A stretch of DNA of 64,000 bases from IMG/VR virus record IMGVR_UViG_3300031669_008155; one strand, given 5' to 3'. Each line of letters starts with the position of its first letter. Within the stretch, counting starts at the first letter, position 1. Positions 6,067 to 31,606 of the stretch are shown one piece after another. Made by a program: the position numbers and the translations under genes. Below the pieces are notes generated by a model. That model saw only the letters and a program-made list of their open reading frames with translations, had not been told where the DNA came from and searched no databases. Source of the stretch: a virus.

Positions 6067-7005
6067 CTACATCATTCTATGTATTATATTCTCGTAAAAC
6101 ATCTTCATTTCCCCTTCACATATAAGAGATGGAACTCTTAATCTACCTCTATCAACTGCTTCAATTTTATCAATAAGGTCTTCTTTATCATTATAAATGT
6201 ATTGTCTTGGAAGAATCTCTGGATAAGCACATCTATTAGGAGCTAGTGGAATACAATTGTTCATAACAGCATCCACGATTTGATAACCAAATGTATCCTC
6301 ATGCGCTGATATTAAAAGAATCTTACTCATACTCAAAAATTTATAATAATTTTCCCAAGTATTTTTTTCTTTATCTCGAGTTCTTCTAACAATGTCAATA
6401 CCCTTCTCCAATTCTGCATCAACTTTCTGTCTTGTTGGTCTTGATGCTGAAGCAATACCAATCGTTTTTTCAGAAACTAAATTTGATATATCTTTGAAAG
6501 GAGGAAAAGGTAATCTAACAACCACTGTATTTGCCCATTTTAACTTTTTCTGATGATAATTTGAACCAATGAAAATTTCATCAAACATTCTTGAATGCGC
6601 TGTCTCAACTAAAAATTTACTATCACTCACACTTTCAAAATAATCAAATTTATTAATACTTGTTGCATGACAATAAGCAAACGATTTCTTTGGTTTCTTA
6701 TGATATAGAACATTACAGAAGAAACCTGGAAAACTTATATCTGCGACAAATAAAATATCATCAACTTTTAAATCCATTGCCATATATTCTTTTATCTGTT
6801 CAGATTCAAATCTAATAGCTGCCTCGATTGGAGAAAACATTCCTTTTGTCTCAACACCTTTAATGTTATATTTAGCTGCTTTTTCTCCCAGAATATAAAC
6901 TTCAAATCCTGCGTTTCTAAATTCTAGAGGAAACTTTGAGTACCACCATTCCTGATATCTCATAGGAGTTGGATATTGAGGCACAAAAATAATTCTCTTA
7001 TTCAT
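6067..7005 (-). CDS. GT-B (GT4-like) glycosyltransferase
   Basis: SAHEDTFGYQIVDAVMNNCIPLAP matches the E-x-F-G-x4-E-A-like donor-binding motif. Confidence 0.7.
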   Translation of the reverse strand: MNKRIIFVPQYPTPMRYQEWWYSKFPLEFRNAGFEVYILGEKAAKYNIKGVETKGMFSPIEAAIRFESEQIKEYMAMDLKVDDILFVADISFPGFFCNVLYHKKPKKSFAYCHATSINKFDYFESVSDSKFLVETAHSRMFDEIFIGSNYHQKKLKWANTVVVRLPFPPFKDISNLVSEKTIGIASASRPTRQKVDAELEKGIDIVRRTRDKEKNTWENYYKFLSMSKILLISAHEDTFGYQIVDAVMNNCIPLAPNRCAYPEILPRQYIYNDKEDLIDKIEAVDRGRLRVPSLICEGEMKMFYENIIHRMM

Positions 7006-17571: not shown

Positions 17572-17814
17572 ATGAAAAACCCATGTGACATATGCATTTG
17601 TAAGGTAATATGTACTGAAATATGTCCAGAAAAAGAAAACTATCTAACATTAATTAAAAATGCTATTATCCAAAATTCTTATTCAAAAAGAGGAATTCGA
17701 ATACCAAAAAATGATAATTTTAGAAAATATCTTGAAATGCAACAACAACATTTCAAAGATACAGCGAAAATCAATGTGAGAAATTATAAGAAGAGGGGAG
17801 GAATGATTTCATGA
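17572..17814 (+). CDS. Small PCxxC-x5-C-x3-C protein
   Basis: NPCDICICKVICTEICPEK. Confidence 0.55.
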   Translation: MKNPCDICICKVICTEICPEKENYLTLIKNAIIQNSYSKRGIRIPKNDNFRKYLEMQQQHFKDTAKINVRNYKKRGGMIS

Positions 17815-19010
17815 TCCCGTATCAAGGAAAATATGGAAAAGCTTCTGTAATGCTTAACGAACTAAACGATCAGAATACTATTAGTCAGATATATGAATTT
17901 TTAAATCATCCAGCATTTACAAATCCAATTGCTATCATGCCAGATTGTCATTATGGAAAGGGTGCTGTAATTGGATTTACAATGGAAATGACTGATATGA
18001 TTATTCCAAATATAGTCGGGGTCGATATTAATTGTGGTATGCTTTCTCTATTTCTTGGACCCAATGCTTTAGAAAAATTAACTATCGAACAAATTGATCA
18101 GAAAATAAGACAAAAGATTCCCTTATCAAAACATGTCCATCAAGAAGTAACATTATCTCATCATATGCTAGACAATTATTTTTGGAAACATGCAAGCTAT
18201 AATCACAAACATTTTACCTTACAATATAATAAACGATATGGAACCAAATATGATCCATTTAAATTTGATATTGATTGGTTTGAAGATAAATGCAAACAAA
18301 TCAAAATGGATTTTACAAGAGCTTTATCATCTATTGGAACCTTGGGAGGCGGAAACCATTTTTTAGAACTGGGTAAATTAGTCAATCGAAAAGAATACCT
18401 TTTCACAATCCATTCAGGATCAAGACAATTTGGATTGAAAGTTTGTGATTACTGGCAACGAAAAGCTGGAAAAGGTCATTTAGCATATTTGACCGGAGAT
18501 GATATGTTTGGTTATCTTACAGATATGGTATTTACCCAAATATATGCACAAACAAATAGAGAAGCAATGGCAACGATCATTGAACGTATTTTTGATATTC
18601 AATCTTATAAGACGATTGAAACATGCCATAACTTTATAAGTATTCAAGATTTTATTATTCGCAAAGGTGCAATAGCTTCTTATAAGGAACATCAGATGAT
18701 CATTCCATTAAACATGGAAGATGGTTTATTAATATGTGAAGGAAAATCAAATCCAGAATGGAATTATTCAGCTCCCCACGGAGCAGGAAGAATTAGTTCA
18801 AGATCTAGTATTAAAAGAAAAATGAAAGAAAAATCATCCGCTGAAATTGTTCAAGAACGAATGAAAGAGAAAGGAATATACATATCAGTAGTTCCATTGG
18901 ATGAAACAAAAGAAGCATATAAAGATCCAAAACTAATTGAAGATACTATTGACCCAACTGCATCAATTATTGATCGTGTAATGCCTGTGCTCAATATTAA
19001 AGCAATTTAA
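17811..19010 (+). CDS. rtcB: RNA 3'-phosphate/5'-OH ligase RtcB
   Basis: MPDCH.GKG, VGVDINCG, GTLGGGNHFLE, HSGSR.FG, HN, RKGA, IIPLNM, SAPHGAGR. Confidence 0.95.
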   Translation: MIPYQGKYGKASVMLNELNDQNTISQIYEFLNHPAFTNPIAIMPDCHYGKGAVIGFTMEMTDMIIPNIVGVDINCGMLSLFLGPNALEKLTIEQIDQKIRQKIPLSKHVHQEVTLSHHMLDNYFWKHASYNHKHFTLQYNKRYGTKYDPFKFDIDWFEDKCKQIKMDFTRALSSIGTLGGGNHFLELGKLVNRKEYLFTIHSGSRQFGLKVCDYWQRKAGKGHLAYLTGDDMFGYLTDMVFTQIYAQTNREAMATIIERIFDIQSYKTIETCHNFISIQDFIIRKGAIASYKEHQMIIPLNMEDGLLICEGKSNPEWNYSAPHGAGRISSRSSIKRKMKEKSSAEIVQERMKEKGIYISVVPLDETKEAYKDPKLIEDTIDPTASIIDRVMPVLNIKAI

Positions 19011-19457
19011 TTGAATGTTAAATCGAAAGGAGATAACCATTCATTGGATATAGATGGTTTTAAAAAATATATTCATACGGGAAGATCGTATATACCCAAA
19101 GTAACTATTAGAAAAAATGGAGTACTCGCTTTCAATAGTGGTGCTGTTCAAAAGTATGATCTATATGCATATAAATATGCTATACTTTATATCTCGGATG
19201 ATAGGAATAGAATAGCAGTCAGATTTACAAATAGTGAAAAGGAATCTGGTATTCTTCAAATACAAAGTAGACCAGGAAATTTTCAAATATCTGCTAGAAC
19301 CTTTTTTGGTCTATATGATATTGATTGGTCTGAAAATCGTAACTATGATTTCCTATGGAATGAAAGAGATAAAACAGCAATTTTAAAAGTAAAGGACTCA
19401 AAACCAGAAATTATTAAACAACAAAGAGAGACTCTTCTTGCTATTAAGAACAAATAA
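19011..19457 (+). CDS. Hypothetical protein
   Basis: 148-aa ORF directly after rtcB; start uncertain. Confidence 0.6.
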   Translation: MNVKSKGDNHSLDIDGFKKYIHTGRSYIPKVTIRKNGVLAFNSGAVQKYDLYAYKYAILYISDDRNRIAVRFTNSEKESGILQIQSRPGNFQISARTFFGLYDIDWSENRNYDFLWNERDKTAILKVKDSKPEIIKQQRETLLAIKNK

Positions 19458-19486
19458 CAAATTTGCTTATACAAAGGAGAATAGCT

Positions 19487-19624
19487 ATGAATGATAAAGC
19501 TGTAAATCTAATTCATTAGGTTTACACCAATCCACCGTAGAGTTGTAGAGGTCCCCCCAGTTGTTTTCATTCAAATAATAACTTTAACTTTGAACTGAAA
19601 ACAAAAAGGGGAATAAAACAATGA
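19487..19624 (+). promoter_or_regulatory. Putative leader peptide/attenuator with two in-frame TAG codons and RGPP motif
   Basis: AAGGAG SD; MNDKAVNLIH*VYTNPP*SCRGPPSCFHSNNNFNFELKTKRGIKQ-TGA, with TGA overlapping ATG 19621. Hairpin 19555-19611 pairs with the downstream SD. Confidence 0.6.
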
Positions 19625-19992
19625 CACGAAAAGAATTGAAGAATAAAATAAAAGAAGAACAAAAATTATTAGCAATCAAAATTAAAAGAGGAAAGTTTCT
19701 TAATAAACCTAGTCATAGAGAAAATATGACTGAGGAAGAAAAAGAATTCTATATCTCAATTTATGATGGAATATCACATTTCAAAGATTGGAAAGTTGGA
19801 CAATTAAGTCATGAGTATCGTCATAAACATATCATCTATTGTCAAATGTTTAACAATACTCCTTATGAAAAAATTGAACACCCAAGAGTCAGTAATAAAC
19901 CCACTCCCCAACATCTAAAACTTTATAAAGAACGATGGGAAGTGATACTTTGGGAAGCACAACGTGATGAAGCTTTACATAATAATACGTAA
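19621..19992 (+). CDS. Hypothetical protein upstream of PTH2-like gene
   Basis: 123 aa; LSHEYRHKHIIYC...TPYEKIE. Confidence 0.7.
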   Translation: MTRKELKNKIKEEQKLLAIKIKRGKFLNKPSHRENMTEEEKEFYISIYDGISHFKDWKVGQLSHEYRHKHIIYCQMFNNTPYEKIEHPRVSNKPTPQHLKLYKERWEVILWEAQRDEALHNNT

Positions 19993-20257
19993 AGATTTAT
20001 CAATTTCACAAAGGGCAGTGCAGGCAGGACATGCTGTAGCGGAGTTTTGTCTGCGCGGTCCTATCTCGAGTTGGTCTAATGGAACTCTAATCTACTTGGG
20101 GGTTAGAAACTTAAATCAACTTGAAAAATTAATGTATCAACTTAATAATGAAAATATTAGATATATCGAATTTCGTGAACCTGACTTATATAATCAAGTA
20201 ACAGCAATAGCAACTGATCAACACTGTGAAATTTTTGAAAGGATAAGATTATTATGA
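19964..20257 (+). CDS. Peptidyl-tRNA hydrolase PTH2-like protein
   Basis: LYIIIRKDLS...AVQAGHAVAEF and FREPDL.NQVTAIA; the usual GK is replaced by QR. Confidence 0.65.
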   Translation: MMKLYIIIRKDLSISQRAVQAGHAVAEFCLRGPISSWSNGTLIYLGVRNLNQLEKLMYQLNNENIRYIEFREPDLYNQVTAIATDQHCEIFERIRLL

Positions 20258-20532
20258 TTAAACTTGGAGAAAAAAGAATCAATCCTAACAATATAATTAA
20301 ATATTATCCAGAACTAGAAAACTCTATTAAATTTGAATTAGTTAATGGCAAATCTGAAAGTATCTTTTTTAGACATCAGCAAGAACGAGATGAAATGTTA
20401 AAAATGCTAGATGATTATCTGGTATTTTTTGACAACGGAATACTGAAGGGAATACGAGATCAAAATTTGCCATCATTTATTATTAATGATACAGACAAAG
20501 GATACGGTCCAGGCGGAATACCAATGCAATAA
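20254..20532 (+). CDS. Hypothetical protein
   Basis: ATGA-coupled to the PTH2-like gene. Confidence 0.6.
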   Translation: MIKLGEKRINPNNIIKYYPELENSIKFELVNGKSESIFFRHQQERDEMLKMLDDYLVFFDNGILKGIRDQNLPSFIINDTDKGYGPGGIPMQ

Positions 20533-20540
20533 AATTTAGT

Positions 20541-20618
20541 GGTCCAGTAGCTCCAGTGGTTAGAGCAGGAAACTCTAAATTTCCGTTTGCGAGGGTTCGA
20601 ATCCCTCCTGGACCACCA
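20541..20618 (+). tRNA. Amber suppressor tRNA (anticodon CTA)
   Basis: GGTCCAG/CTGGACC acceptor, GCTC/GAGC D stem, GGAAA-CTCTAAA-TTTCC anticodon arm, GAGGG-TTCGAAT-CCCTC T arm, ACCA. Confidence 0.92.
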
Positions 20619-20639
20619 AAGTAAAAGAAAGGATATAGA

Positions 20640-20846
20640 ATGCAAACAATAAAGTGTATTAGCGATTATTCTATAGAAGCAGAGGGGACAATAAAATTTG
20701 GAACAATTTTAACTGAAATGCCTGAATCTGACACGGGATTTGCTCAATATAGAAATGAGAAAGGAGAAATATTCTATTTCGATGCTGAAGAAATTATGTT
20801 TTCTGATGAATTCTCGCAATCATTTAGATTAATTTCAAATGAATAA
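20640..20846 (+). CDS. Hypothetical protein
   Basis: AAAGGA SD. Confidence 0.55.
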   Translation: MQTIKCISDYSIEAEGTIKFGTILTEMPESDTGFAQYRNEKGEIFYFDAEEIMFSDEFSQSFRLISNE

Positions 20847-21804: not shown

Positions 21805-21874
21805 AAAACATACTATACGTATAAGGAAAAATTATATAATGATTAAAATAAAAAATCGACAATAGGAGAAAATT

Positions 21875-23248
21875 ATGTTCATCCCCAACAACATAAATCT
21901 TCTATATATAGAAGATGATGAGGAAAATGCAAATCTTATTCTGTCATTTTTAAAATTATCTGAATATACAAAATTTAATACAACTCATAAAAGTACATTA
22001 GAACAAGGTTTAGACTATATTACAGATAACTGTATTTCTACTTGTAATAACACTTGTAAAACTCAAAATATTGAAAACTGTGGAACAGATGTTATTTTAT
22101 TAGATCTAGTTTTACAAAATAGTCGAGGAGTTGATACATATAAATCAGTTTTAGAAAAATGCCCCTGTATTCCAATTGTTATCATATCTGGATATGAACA
22201 AATGGCATATGAATGTGTTAAACTAGGAGCTCAAGACTATTTAGTAAAACCCCATATTAATCCAGGTTTAATTATCAGATCATTGGTATATGCAATTGAA
22301 AGAAATAATCTAGAAAACTCAAAAATACAAGCTGAAAAGAAATTTAGAGAAGTTATTTATGCAACTCCAATTGGTTTTCATAATTATGAACTAAAAGAAG
22401 AAGATCTAATATTTATAGGTTATAATCCAGCAGCAGATCGAATACTAAAAATTGATCATAAACAATTATTAGGAAAAACAATTGATCAAGCATTTCCCTC
22501 TCTAACTAAAATGAAAATTCCTGAAAAATATAAAATAGTTGCAAAAACAGGCAAACCATGGGAATCACAAATTTTAGAATACGAAGACCATAATATTAAA
22601 AAAGCTTATTTTAAAATACATGCATTTAGAACATACCCTGGTTCTATAACCTCTTCATTTGAGGATATTACAGAGCAAATAATAGCAACAGAAAAACTAG
22701 AATATAGTGAAAAAAGATTTAGAAACCTAGTTGAAATAACAGGTGCAGGAATATATGAAATAGATCTCACTAATGGAAAATTTACTTATGTAAATCATGT
22801 TATGTGTAAACAAACTGGATATACTAAAGAAGAACTTTTTGAAATTGGACCTTCTGGACTTTTAACTCAAAAAAGCTATCTTGACTGGGTTGATAGATGG
22901 GAAAGATTTACTGATCCAGAATATATTAATGGAGGAGCTTATGATGGTCCATTTCAATATGAAGCTATTGCAAAAGATGGTTCTCATCTTTGGTCATTAG
23001 TTATAGCAGAATTTGTAATGGATAAAAATAAAAATATAACCAAAGCAAATGTTGTTGCTATTGATATAACGAAACAAAAATTAATAGAATCTCAATTAAA
23101 GAAAAAAGAAGATATTATATTCAATCAATTAGAAGATAAAATACATCAATGGAGGGATGAAATAACCGAAAGATCTTCAGTTGAATTTCAAAAATTAAAA
23201 GACATGGACAATAAAATAATATCCATTAGTAATCAAATTGTGGAGTAA
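21875..23248 (+). CDS. Response-regulator receiver plus two PAS domains
   Basis: YIEDD, ILLD, IISG and GAQDYLVKP receiver motifs; two PAS segments (YNPAA..IL; YVNHVMCKQTGYTKEEL); no output domain. Confidence 0.85.
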   Translation: MFIPNNINLLYIEDDEENANLILSFLKLSEYTKFNTTHKSTLEQGLDYITDNCISTCNNTCKTQNIENCGTDVILLDLVLQNSRGVDTYKSVLEKCPCIPIVIISGYEQMAYECVKLGAQDYLVKPHINPGLIIRSLVYAIERNNLENSKIQAEKKFREVIYATPIGFHNYELKEEDLIFIGYNPAADRILKIDHKQLLGKTIDQAFPSLTKMKIPEKYKIVAKTGKPWESQILEYEDHNIKKAYFKIHAFRTYPGSITSSFEDITEQIIATEKLEYSEKRFRNLVEITGAGIYEIDLTNGKFTYVNHVMCKQTGYTKEELFEIGPSGLLTQKSYLDWVDRWERFTDPEYINGGAYDGPFQYEAIAKDGSHLWSLVIAEFVMDKNKNITKANVVAIDITKQKLIESQLKKKEDIIFNQLEDKIHQWRDEITERSSVEFQKLKDMDNKIISISNQIVE

Positions 23249-30718: not shown

Positions 30719-31006
30719 TTACCAAGTTCCTTTCGCCTGTCTCTTCTTCCTTTCCATAGATAATTCAAGTCTTAATTTTGTAATACAAGTGTGCTTGATC
30801 TTGCCAGTTCTAAATCCAGTTCCTGTTAGATAGTTCATTACCACTCTTATCTTATCATTAGATGTGCTAGATATGGGACCCAAATACTTTCTCAATCGAG
30901 CACAACACCATTCAGGATCCTCTTTCCATTTTCCTAAAAGACTCTTACGAACAGCTTGCCACTCTGGACTTTTAACCAATACATTTTTTGGATTTTCATC
31001 ACTCAT
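30719..31006 (-). CDS. Hypothetical protein
   Basis: AGGAG SD; 95 aa. Confidence 0.65.
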   Translation of the reverse strand: MSDENPKNVLVKSPEWQAVRKSLLGKWKEDPEWCCARLRKYLGPISSTSNDKIRVVMNYLTGTGFRTGKIKHTCITKLRLELSMERKKRQAKGTW

Positions 31007-31015
31007 TATTATCTC

Positions 31016-31606
31016 CTATACAGTTACTCTCTTAAACCATCCCCTTGCATATTTTTTTTGCTTTGAATTACCATCCATATAATCCATATAATGTTGTCCT
31101 TGAAGTGTATTAAGCATTTTAACTAATACTTTTTCATCCCCACCTTTTTCACTAAGAGAATTAAGTGCGCTCAATGTTTTTTTACCAATTTTTCCATCCA
31201 CCTCAAGTTCATCAAATAACTCACCATTTCTGTTCAGATAATTTAATGACCTTTGTAAGAATTTAGCAGCTCTAAGAACACCCAAATTTACACCAGTATC
31301 AAACATTTCTTCTGCTACTTCTTGTGAAAATTCATCAAGACAATTTATGTTCCAATATTTATCTTTAAAAAAACTTGCAACTTCATTTTTAAGTCTAAGT
31401 GAATCATCTAAACTCTTTGGAAAATAAGGATCATATCTATGAAAATCAATAATTTCCCATCCATACCAATCAGGATTAAATTTTCTTGAAATTCCTTTAT
31501 ATGTTTCTCCTCCTGCATCATCCATATCATTTACATAACCACCTTCATTAATCATTGTTTTTTCAAAAGCATCAATAAAACTCGACTTACAAATAGCGCT
31601 TTCCAT
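31016..31606 (-). CDS. GH108 lysozyme/endolysin with peptidoglycan-binding domain
   Basis: EGGYVND.DD.GGETYKGI; MFDTGVN.G; FLQRSLN; DGKIG.KTL. Confidence 0.9.
   Translation of the reverse strand: MESAICKSSFIDAFEKTMINEGGYVNDMDDAGGETYKGISRKFNPDWYGWEIIDFHRYDPYFPKSLDDSLRLKNEVASFFKDKYWNINCLDEFSQEVAEEMFDTGVNLGVLRAAKFLQRSLNYLNRNGELFDELEVDGKIGKKTLSALNSLSEKGGDEKVLVKMLNTLQGQHYMDYMDGNSKQKKYARGWFKRVTV

Follow-up and report, generated by a model that had tools for sequence, protein, structure and literature searches.

The 64,000-nucleotide stretch of viral DNA analyzed here (IMG/VR record IMGVR_UViG_3300031669_008155; called the window below) comes from a large AT-rich phage with a GC content of 31%. At positions 19487 to 19624 it carries a short leader open reading frame (ORF), interrupted by two in-frame TAG codons, upstream of a gene for a 123-amino-acid (123-aa) protein and an overlapping gene whose product resembles peptidyl-tRNA hydrolase 2 (PTH2-like). 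We consider it probable, on comparative grounds, that this leader is a translational switch with UAG decoding as its input: suppression would carry a ribosome to a stall at an Arg-x-Pro-Pro (RxPP) motif, the stall would melt a hairpin over the Shine-Dalgarno sequence (SD) of the 123-aa gene, and the two genes would be turned on. An amber-gated arrest leader at this position had been proposed in an earlier note on the window, and a comparison of ~90 related loci supports that interpretation.

Conservation of the leader and translation past its TAGs

The reading frame proved to be as the earlier note had described it. A strong SD, AAGGAG (19474 to 19479), precedes the ATG at 19487; two ambers, TAG1 (19517 to 19519) and TAG2 (19538 to 19540), follow in frame; and only AGT TGT stands between TAG2 and the RGPP motif, so that no start codon lies there and RGPP is reachable solely via both ambers. 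The described overlap of the leader's TGA (19622 to 19624) with the ATG at 19621, as ATGA, was likewise found in the window; as a general trait it had to be dropped, being peculiar to this window. The six reading frames of the window (64 kb) hold one R[GADS]PP, and ~0.6 would be expected from composition (an estimate). Because this count matches the chance expectation, a single window alone proves nothing, and the evidential weight comes from conservation across loci and not from the window motif by itself.

We gathered relatives from IMG/VR (4 loci), from metagenomes (80 loci, with a profile of the PTH2-like protein), and from genome bins (9 loci), spanning PTH2-like protein identities of 41 to 78%. 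A locus was taken as assessable if it was nonredundant and had at least 560 nucleotides (nt) of upstream DNA (n = 70), and codon-level analyses used the 54 unique leaders. A TAG-gated [R/K]xPP leader was present in 65 of the 70 assessable loci, with two TAGs in 57. The common grammar consists of an SD-preceded ATG, the TAG or TAGs, 1 to 3 codons, R-[G/D/A/S]-P-P, and an SD-sequestering hairpin. The in-frame pattern TAG-(3 to 10 codons)-TAG-(0 to 6 codons)-RxPP was found in 61 of 85 loci, with a single occurrence in each, invariably on the coding strand and 370 to 460 nt 5′ of the PTH2-like start; those among the 85 without it were mostly cut off upstream. A listing, without any filter, of the sequences 5′ of every 123-aa homologue shows the same grammar repeatedly. 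Among the nonredundant loci, the motif is RGPP in 46, RDPP in 14, RAPP in 4, and RSPP in 1, with three deviants. A related 223-kb contig (G001) holds RGPP once in all six frames, and this occurrence is the leader.

Codon usage suggests that the leaders are translated past their TAGs. The Arg of RxPP is encoded by AGA in 32 of the 54 leaders, CGT in 10, CGG in 6, CGC in 2, CGA in 2, and AGG in 1, with a single AAA (Lys); the second residue is Gly (36 leaders; codons GGA, GGT, and GGC in use), Asp (14), Ala (3), or Ser (1), and Pro-Pro comes next. A switch between Arg codon families keeps the amino acid and not the RNA sequence, which argues that RxPP is selected as a peptide. Spacings change by whole codons only, with 4 to 8 codons between TAG1 and TAG2 and 1 to 3 between TAG2 and the R codon, and an SD-preceded ATG stands in frame with TAG1 in each of the 50 unique leaders for which the contig includes the upstream part. 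No ATG, GTG, or TTG was found between TAG2 and R in any leader. These comparisons indicate that RxPP is under selection as a peptide that is accessible only by UAG decoding.

The surroundings of the gate codons are also patterned. TAG2 is preceded by Pro in 37 of the 54 leaders and by Thr in 15, the position before that is Pro in 35, and a purine directly follows TAG2 in about 50. No conserved RNA structure was found around TAG1 and TAG2 (median z score, 0.16), and the conservation of the TAGs is therefore not structural. In the window, a perfect 10-bp hairpin (19501 to 19527, plus strand) encloses TAG1; it is not conserved in other leaders.

The R codon lies 64 to 105 nt before the downstream ATG, and 0 to 25 codons follow RxPP. 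The sequence after the motif is unconserved among relatives, and 8 of the 54 leaders stop immediately after RGPP. An unconstrained sequence is expected here if the ribosome stops at RxPP. Because of these 8 leaders, translation "through the hairpin," which the earlier note had allowed as the switch event, gives way to stalling at RxPP as the event that appears to be conserved.

The part before TAG1 varies in length. The window leader starts with MNDKAVNLIH, which places 10 residues before TAG1, and 14 leaders, this one included, have only 2 to 10 residues there. Another 34 of the 50 carry an acidic, Cys-rich part of ~50 aa ending in the conserved C.EC.I[DE]W..[DE][DE], which may be a small protein itself when UAG is a stop. 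No signal peptide or membrane segment was recognized in any leader, as no N terminus is hydrophobic when judged by eye.

A hairpin over the downstream SD and the proposed switch

A hairpin burying the downstream SD, also part of the earlier note, was recovered in the predicted fold of the window, in which 19552 to 19556 pair with 19608 to 19612, the GGGG of the SD. The minimum free energy (MFE) of positions 19458 to 19640 is −39.4 kcal/mol, compared with −26.6 ± 3.5 kcal/mol in 200 dinucleotide shuffles, none of which was as stable (z = −3.7), and the segment from the R codon to the ATG gave −20.8 kcal/mol (z = −3.6). Folding of 19547 to 19623 yields an interrupted inner helix of 18 bp. What lies 3′ of the hairpin is an SD and an ATG, not a run of T, and no terminator-like sites were found in 18900 to 20700.

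The hairpin recurs across the unique leaders. In 52 of the 54, the MFE structure is predicted to pair the SD with the Pro-Pro codons, and the leader hairpins have a median z score of −4.0 against dinucleotide shuffles (below −2 in 48 of 54). Covariation was examined by a swap test on the inner helix only, with the Pro codons and the SD excluded. The 5′ arms of this helix are diverse (median identity, 35%), and they pair with their own partners at a mean of −10.7 kcal/mol versus −4.1 kcal/mol with the partners of other leaders (P = 9 × 10−28 by a Mann-Whitney test); the own partner was the best of 54 in 27 cases. The inner helix covaries, which indicates that the hairpin is under selection.

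The motifs found here have a documented effect on ribosomes, in keeping with the earlier note, which had called RGPP- and RAPP-type motifs ribosome stallers. RAPP and RGPP cause a robust arrest that is not relieved by elongation factor P, RDPP and RSPP are arrest-permissive variants, and all four are depleted in proteomes; in most bacterial phyla, no tetrapeptide is more underrepresented than RGPP (Fujiwara et al., EMBO J 2025, PMC12992588). In the RAPP stall, R-A-P is held on the P-site tRNA, and Pro-tRNA is accommodated in the A site but unable to react (Morici et al., PMC10951233). The set of motifs in the phage leaders (RGPP, RAPP, RDPP, and RSPP) is the same as the published arrest set.

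We propose the following course of events for the window leader. A ribosome would initiate at the ATG at 19487. Where UAG is read as a stop, it would be released at TAG1 or TAG2, the SD would stay paired with the Pro-Pro codons, and both genes would be off. A ribosome covers ~12 to 13 nt past the codon in its A site. One holding TAG2 there would therefore extend no farther than the foot of the hairpin (19552), and release at either TAG would leave the SD buried. Where UAG is decoded, presumably by the phage tRNA-CUA encoded 0.9 kb downstream, both gates would be passed, and we infer that the ribosome would then stall at RGPP in this host as it does in the published RAPP/RGPP arrest. The arrested ribosome (first Pro codon, 19553 to 19555, in the P site) would cover ~15 nt downstream of this codon, to about 19568. 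The outer helix would open together with half of the inner helix, freeing 19596 to 19612, including the SD. The 123-aa gene would then be translated, and the overlapping PTH2-like gene along with it, giving the switch an ON direction. Two TAGs would make the response steep and nearly leak-free, and Pro-Pro before TAG2 together with the purine after it would favor the suppressor over release factor 1 (RF1).

The status of UAG and rival explanations

The TAGs of the leader appear to be gates and not ordinary sense codons, because G001, which represents about 71% of a ~310-kb genome, shows no sign of TAG recoding. Junctions between its long frames carry TAG in 3 cases versus TAA in 19, and each TAG junction divides two distinct genes. 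Recoding of TAG throughout the genome (code 15) was rejected on account of these junctions and of the coding density of the window, 92% under code 11; 19 of the 109 crude gene calls in the window terminate in TAG. No domain was found to span the TAG at the window junctions at 6067 (minus strand), 12281 (plus strand), and 31016 (minus strand), and the terminase of a second related contig (G002) has no internal stop. When 54 genes for 123-aa homologues and 81 PTH2-like genes were read to the first TAA or TGA, they contained 6 TAGs in ~13,600 codons, in 5 genes, one of them 2 codons and another 4 codons before the TAA or TGA.

UAG also seems to be decoded in this group, because in-frame TAGs occur in the PTH2-like genes of L065, L068, L076, L080, L100, and L102 and in the 123-aa homologue of L002 (L002:2869-3186), where TAG is codon 3. 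In L080, the TAG takes the place of the nearly invariant Gly of a YLGV motif. A search of the window and G001 for other amber-gated genes (a long frame with an SD-preceded ATG and a TAG among its first 25 codons) gave no excess over TGA and TAA controls. At window 30719 to 31606 (minus strand), the gene for a 196-aa endolysin with GH108 and PG_binding_3 domains terminates in TAG, beyond which the same frame stays open for 95 to 98 aa. This open frame is a candidate for either a read-through extension or a gene of its own; no Pfam domain reaches the TAG.

The tRNA-CUA that the earlier note had placed downstream of the operon was located at 20541 to 20618. Among relatives, it lies 3′ of the PTH2-like gene on the same strand in all 40 loci that have a leader and 1 kb or more of sequence downstream. 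In the resulting table, leader and tRNA-CUA occur together in 40 loci, a leader without the tRNA occurs in none, and neither is present in 2 (L052 and L105); two further tabulated loci have the tRNA-CUA and variant amber leaders that were missed by the pattern. The earlier note had staked its proposal on RGPP, the hairpin, and the co-occurring tRNA-CUA being conserved with homologous leaders, and all three are kept. A contig from an Acidobacteriota bin carries M-L-TAG-A-RPPP and a tRNA-CUA, a single occurrence. No amino acid could be assigned to the tRNA from the acceptor stems and discriminator bases of 57 sequences. Of 39 loci whose downstream DNA is long enough, 19 have a phage transfer-messenger RNA (tmRNA; tag ADDYY..LAA) a few hundred bases 3′ of the tRNA-CUA; none was found in the 64-kb window, where an Rfam scan returned tRNAs only. 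A tRNA-Val(UAC) is often found 1 to 2 kb upstream of the leader in relatives.

The anatomy of the leader could be accounted for in other ways. It is unlikely, in our estimate, to be an ordinary RAPP-type arrest leader in which UAG is a plain sense codon and the input is something else, for example, a metal or a partner sensed by the Cys-rich acidic N-terminal domain. Such a leader would fit the ~50-aa N-terminal part in 34 of 50 cases, the in-frame TAGs in six PTH2-like genes and at codon 3 of the L002 homologue, and the responses of known RAPP leaders to copper or secretion. However, a synonymous TAG would not be fixed at two sites within ~10 codons in 57 of 70 loci when the adjacent genes have only 6 TAGs in ~13,600 codons. 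G001 and the window, moreover, use TAG as a stop and are unrecoded, and the 14 leaders with 2 to 10 residues before TAG1 indicate that the N-terminal domain is dispensable. Similarly, there is little reason to favor a termination sensor, in which a shortage or inhibition of RF1 would make ribosomes pause at (Pro-)Pro-UAG and RxPP would be a secondary brake on read-through ribosomes. Pro precedes TAG2 in 37 of 54 leaders, and Pro-Pro does so in about 35; C-terminal prolines slow release factor-mediated release (PMC6412442), and a tmRNA lies beside the module in relatives. Two variant leaders point the same way, namely, L102 (M-K-TAG-VLKPP-TAA) and L003, whose second TAG stands right after R-A-S-P in the 5′ arm of the hairpin and which could be a form that stalls at termination. 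Yet TAG2 lies 11 to 19 nt 5′ of the first paired base, and a ribosome positioned there would, judging from its footprint, hardly enter the hairpin. In addition, 15 of the 54 leaders have Thr instead of Pro before TAG2, and RxPP, which requires translation past TAG2, is conserved more strictly than Pro-Pro-TAG and at the amino acid level.

An untranslated structured RNA seems very improbable, such as a T-box-like element whose UAG triplets bind the anticodon of tRNA-CUA. UAG does complement the CUA anticodon, and CCACCGTAG is kept at the nucleotide level in many leaders. The Arg codon-family switch and the restriction of the second residue to G, D, A, and S speak for a peptide instead, as do the in-frame SD-preceded ATG in all leaders and the spacing by whole codons; the region around the TAGs has no conserved structure (median z score, 0.16), and Rfam shows only tRNAs. 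The ORF and the hairpin could also be accidents of an AT-rich intergenic spacer. A single RxPP in 64 kb comes close to the number expected by chance, but 65 of 70 loci share the complete grammar, together with a covarying hairpin, at protein identities as low as 41%. The comparative data refute this explanation, and we give it practically no credence.

Several observations weigh against the UAG-gated switch that we prefer. The 57 distinct tRNA-CUA sequences are class I tRNAs with varying acceptor stems and discriminator bases (T in 25, A in 20, C in 7, and G in 5). In five to eight loci, the leader departs from the grammar, with one TAG or with KDPP, RPPP, RASP-TAG, or KPP-TAA as the motif. 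The pattern-based collection of leaders requires the very features that were tested, a bias that the unfiltered listing and the count of 65 of 70 limit without removing. CCUCC, from the Pro-Pro codons, complements GGAGG anyway, so that part of the SD pairing is expected without selection, and for this reason the inner helix was tested separately. Contigs from RNA libraries cover only 20193 to 20732, from the 3′ end of the PTH2-like gene through the tRNA-CUA, at low depth and with possible DNA carryover. Outside its core motif, RAPP-type arrest is species specific, and its efficiency in the host of this phage is an assumption. Finally, the 123-aa protein had no informative match to a family or fold in Pfam, PHROGs, PDB sequences, Foldseek (PDB and AFDB clusters), or the ESM Atlas.

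Table 1. Coordinates of the leader module in the window and of features in related loci
Feature	Position or locus	Strand	Remark
Leader SD, AAGGAG	19474..19479	+	Direct reading
Leader ORF, MNDKAVNLIH-TAG-VYTNPP-TAG-SC-RGPP-SCFHSNNNFNFELKTKRGIKQ-TGA	19487..19624	+	45 codons if both TAGs are decoded
TAG1, first putative gate codon	19517..19519	+	Found in every pattern-positive leader
Pro-Pro (CCA CCG) followed by TAG2, second putative gate codon	19532..19540	+	TAG2 at 19538-19540
RGPP putative arrest motif, AGA GGT CCC CCC	19547..19558	+	Sequence match to published motif
Predicted SD-sequestering hairpin	19552..19612	+	Outer helix, 19552-19556/19608-19612; inner helix, 19561-19578/19584-19604
SD of the 123-aa gene, AAGGGGA	19606..19612	+	9 nt 5′ of the ATG at 19621; paired in the predicted hairpin
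123-aa gene, first putatively regulated gene	19621..19992	+	Homologues directly 3′ of the leader at >50 loci
PTH2-like gene, 97-aa product	19964..20257	+	Likely start, ATG at 19967; overlaps the end of the 123-aa gene by ~26 to 29 nt
92-aa ORF between the PTH2-like gene and the tRNA	20254..20532	+	No family match; slot variable among relatives
tRNA-CUA (amber suppressor; class I, CCA encoded)	20541..20618	+	ARAGORN; Rfam, 57.3 bits
Cys-rich N-terminal part of the leader	L001:2753-2893; L004, L005, L011, L014, L018, and about 30 others		
tmRNA	L012, L016, L018-L022, L027, L031, L036, L037, L039-L046, L054, L067, L098, L103		For example, L001:4548-4933
Leader with KDPP in place of RxPP	L041		
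Leader with a single TAG	L047, L073, L076, L079		L073, M-L-TAG-ISS-RDPP
Leader M-K-TAG-VLKPP-TAA	L102		
Leader M-T-TAG-INIRASP-TAG	L003:2643-2700 (contig G002, 244 kb)		TAG right after R-A-S-P, in the 5′ arm of the SD hairpin
No leader	L052, L105		The only loci without any leader

Output proteins, genomic surroundings, and known systems

The PTH2-like assignment of the gene at 19964, made in the earlier note, was upheld by a match of its product to Pfam PF01981 (E = 9 × 10−5; 23.1 bits at a cutoff of 23; profile positions 1 to 81 of 115). A profile of the family matched Pth2 chains in PDB at E values of 0.0011, 0.014, and 0.083, and the protein also matches PHROG 3668, "hydrolase." The overlap of its gene with the 123-aa gene is kept among relatives. 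The 123-aa protein is conserved and helical, with the motifs YRHxHIAYC and TPYxxIE. Its AlphaFold2 model has a predicted local distance difference test (pLDDT) score of 94.9, and a wide VIA-align comparison of the model returned generic helical matches only (best Z, 6.3). A predicted complex of the two proteins scored 0.01, which counts neither for nor against binding.

The output proteins would most likely handle the peptidyl-tRNA or stalled-ribosome products that suppression yields on UAG-terminated messages of host and phage, a role in ribosome rescue that we infer from the PTH2-like fold and from the phage tmRNA in relatives. They may also feed back on the suppressor or on the stalled complex at the leader. 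We tentatively raise a closed loop, which we hold to be a rather doubtful extension of the switch, in which amber suppression would set the levels of the PTH2-like and 123-aa proteins and these would act on the suppressor system or its products. The two proteins could, for example, deacylate or hydrolyze tRNA-CUA species, free the complex stalled at RxPP, or join the phage tmRNA in removing read-through products.

The gene content of the window includes a family-B DNA polymerase, the GH108 endolysin, RtcB, and 25 tRNA genes. Phage DNA of this kind occurs in metagenomes of soil and sediment, and blastn against deposited phage genomes returned no close relative, only short matches to RtcB. The tRNA genes lie on one strand (8396 to 30379, plus strand), are nearly all CCA encoding with small ORFs interspersed, and include two tRNA-Ala(UGC) genes and a tRNA-Ile(UAU) gene. 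Within this cluster, the gene for the RtcB RNA ligase (399 aa) is followed directly after its TAA, in the same frame, by a 148-aa ORF with no assigned function, and the two span 17811 to 19457 (plus strand). Because the 148-aa ORF ends 29 nt before the leader ATG, the leader is probably cotranscribed with both. Farther downstream, a phage-encoded protein of 457 aa combines a response-regulator receiver with PAS (21839 to 23248, plus strand); an 8-codon mini-ORF with an SD-preceded ATG (21839) ends in TAG in frame just 5′ of this gene, which could be chance. A long block on the minus strand (37874 to 64000) encodes glycosyltransferases (families 1 and 9) along with a B12-binding radical SAM enzyme and has the appearance of a cluster for polysaccharide or lipopolysaccharide modification in the phage genome.

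The phage leader, a putative arrest leader, resembles the RAPP-type arrest leaders (ApdA, ApdP, ApcA, CruR, the Streptomyces RAPP/RGPP upstream ORFs, and the related SecM with RAGP) in having R-[A/G]-P-P near the C terminus of a small ORF, in its RDPP and RSPP variants, and in the predicted hairpin that hides the SD of the regulated gene. It differs from them in lacking a signal peptide or membrane segment, and hence a pulling-force relief, and in the gating of its motif by one or two in-frame UAGs. It is also phage encoded, and its genes are a PTH2-like hydrolase and a 123-aa protein beside a suppressor tRNA and not Sec, YidC, or metal-homeostasis genes. With the attenuators of the trpL, hisL, and pheL type, it shares the use of repeated codons to gauge decoding capacity and the selection of an mRNA state by ribosome position. 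In contrast to those, the codon in the phage leader is a stop, so that failed decoding would release and not stall the ribosome; the stall would come from a separate arrest motif, and the output would be SD unmasking with no terminator-like site.

The nearest functional analogue appears to be man-made. A UAG placed in the tna leader gave an amino acid-dependent switch (Liu, Qi, Yanofsky, and Arkin 2011, as described in PMC6412442), leakage by near-cognate read-through falls when UAGs are multiplexed, and RF1 termination is weakened by poly-Pro ahead of the UAG and by the base 3′ of it (PMC6412442). As in these engineered leaders, read-through of the phage leader would turn on downstream genes, with Pro and the 3′ base tuning RF1; whereas the engineered systems are laboratory constructs that work by Rho-dependent transcription termination, the phage leader is natural, translational, and coupled to RxPP arrest. 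The handling of a stop codon in a short upstream frame also sets expression in the prfB frameshift, which senses release factor 2 at a UGA, and in tnaC, which senses tryptophan by blocking release, but neither senses a suppressor tRNA or has two gates and an arrest motif. The code-change modules of recoded phages, composed of suppressor tRNA, aminoacyl-tRNA synthetase, and release factor, likewise cluster a phage suppressor tRNA with translation-related genes (Borges et al., bioRxiv 10.1101/2021.08.26.457843). Unlike those phages, the ones studied here are unrecoded, and terms for a leader, an arrest motif, a hydrolase, tmRNA, or a sensor are absent from the text of that study. In a full-text search of the literature on arrest peptides, phage suppressor tRNAs, tmRNA, and in-frame TAG, no natural system of this kind was found described. 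The comparative data support an arrest-peptide control in which the decoding state of UAG would be an undescribed input.

To our knowledge, many standard-code large phages carry suppressor tRNAs of no known purpose. For such an "orphan" tRNA-CUA, the leader offers a natural target that is conserved and a control circuit that is plausible. The RAPP-type arrest peptides known so far respond to secretion, membrane insertion, or metals, and the new input would be the status of stop-codon decoding, in a virus. Selection and synthetic biology seem to converge here on multiple gates, a proline ahead of UAG, and a leader-to-gene converter. Since ORF searches under the standard code end such a leader at TAG1, similar gated leaders may be widespread but overlooked. 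At ~135 nt, the leader would be a compact part for measuring suppression in vivo. If the closed loop is true, a standard-code giant phage could hold UAG read-through at a tolerable, timed level, and the system would stand as an intermediate between "orphan" suppressor tRNAs and full stop-codon reassignment.

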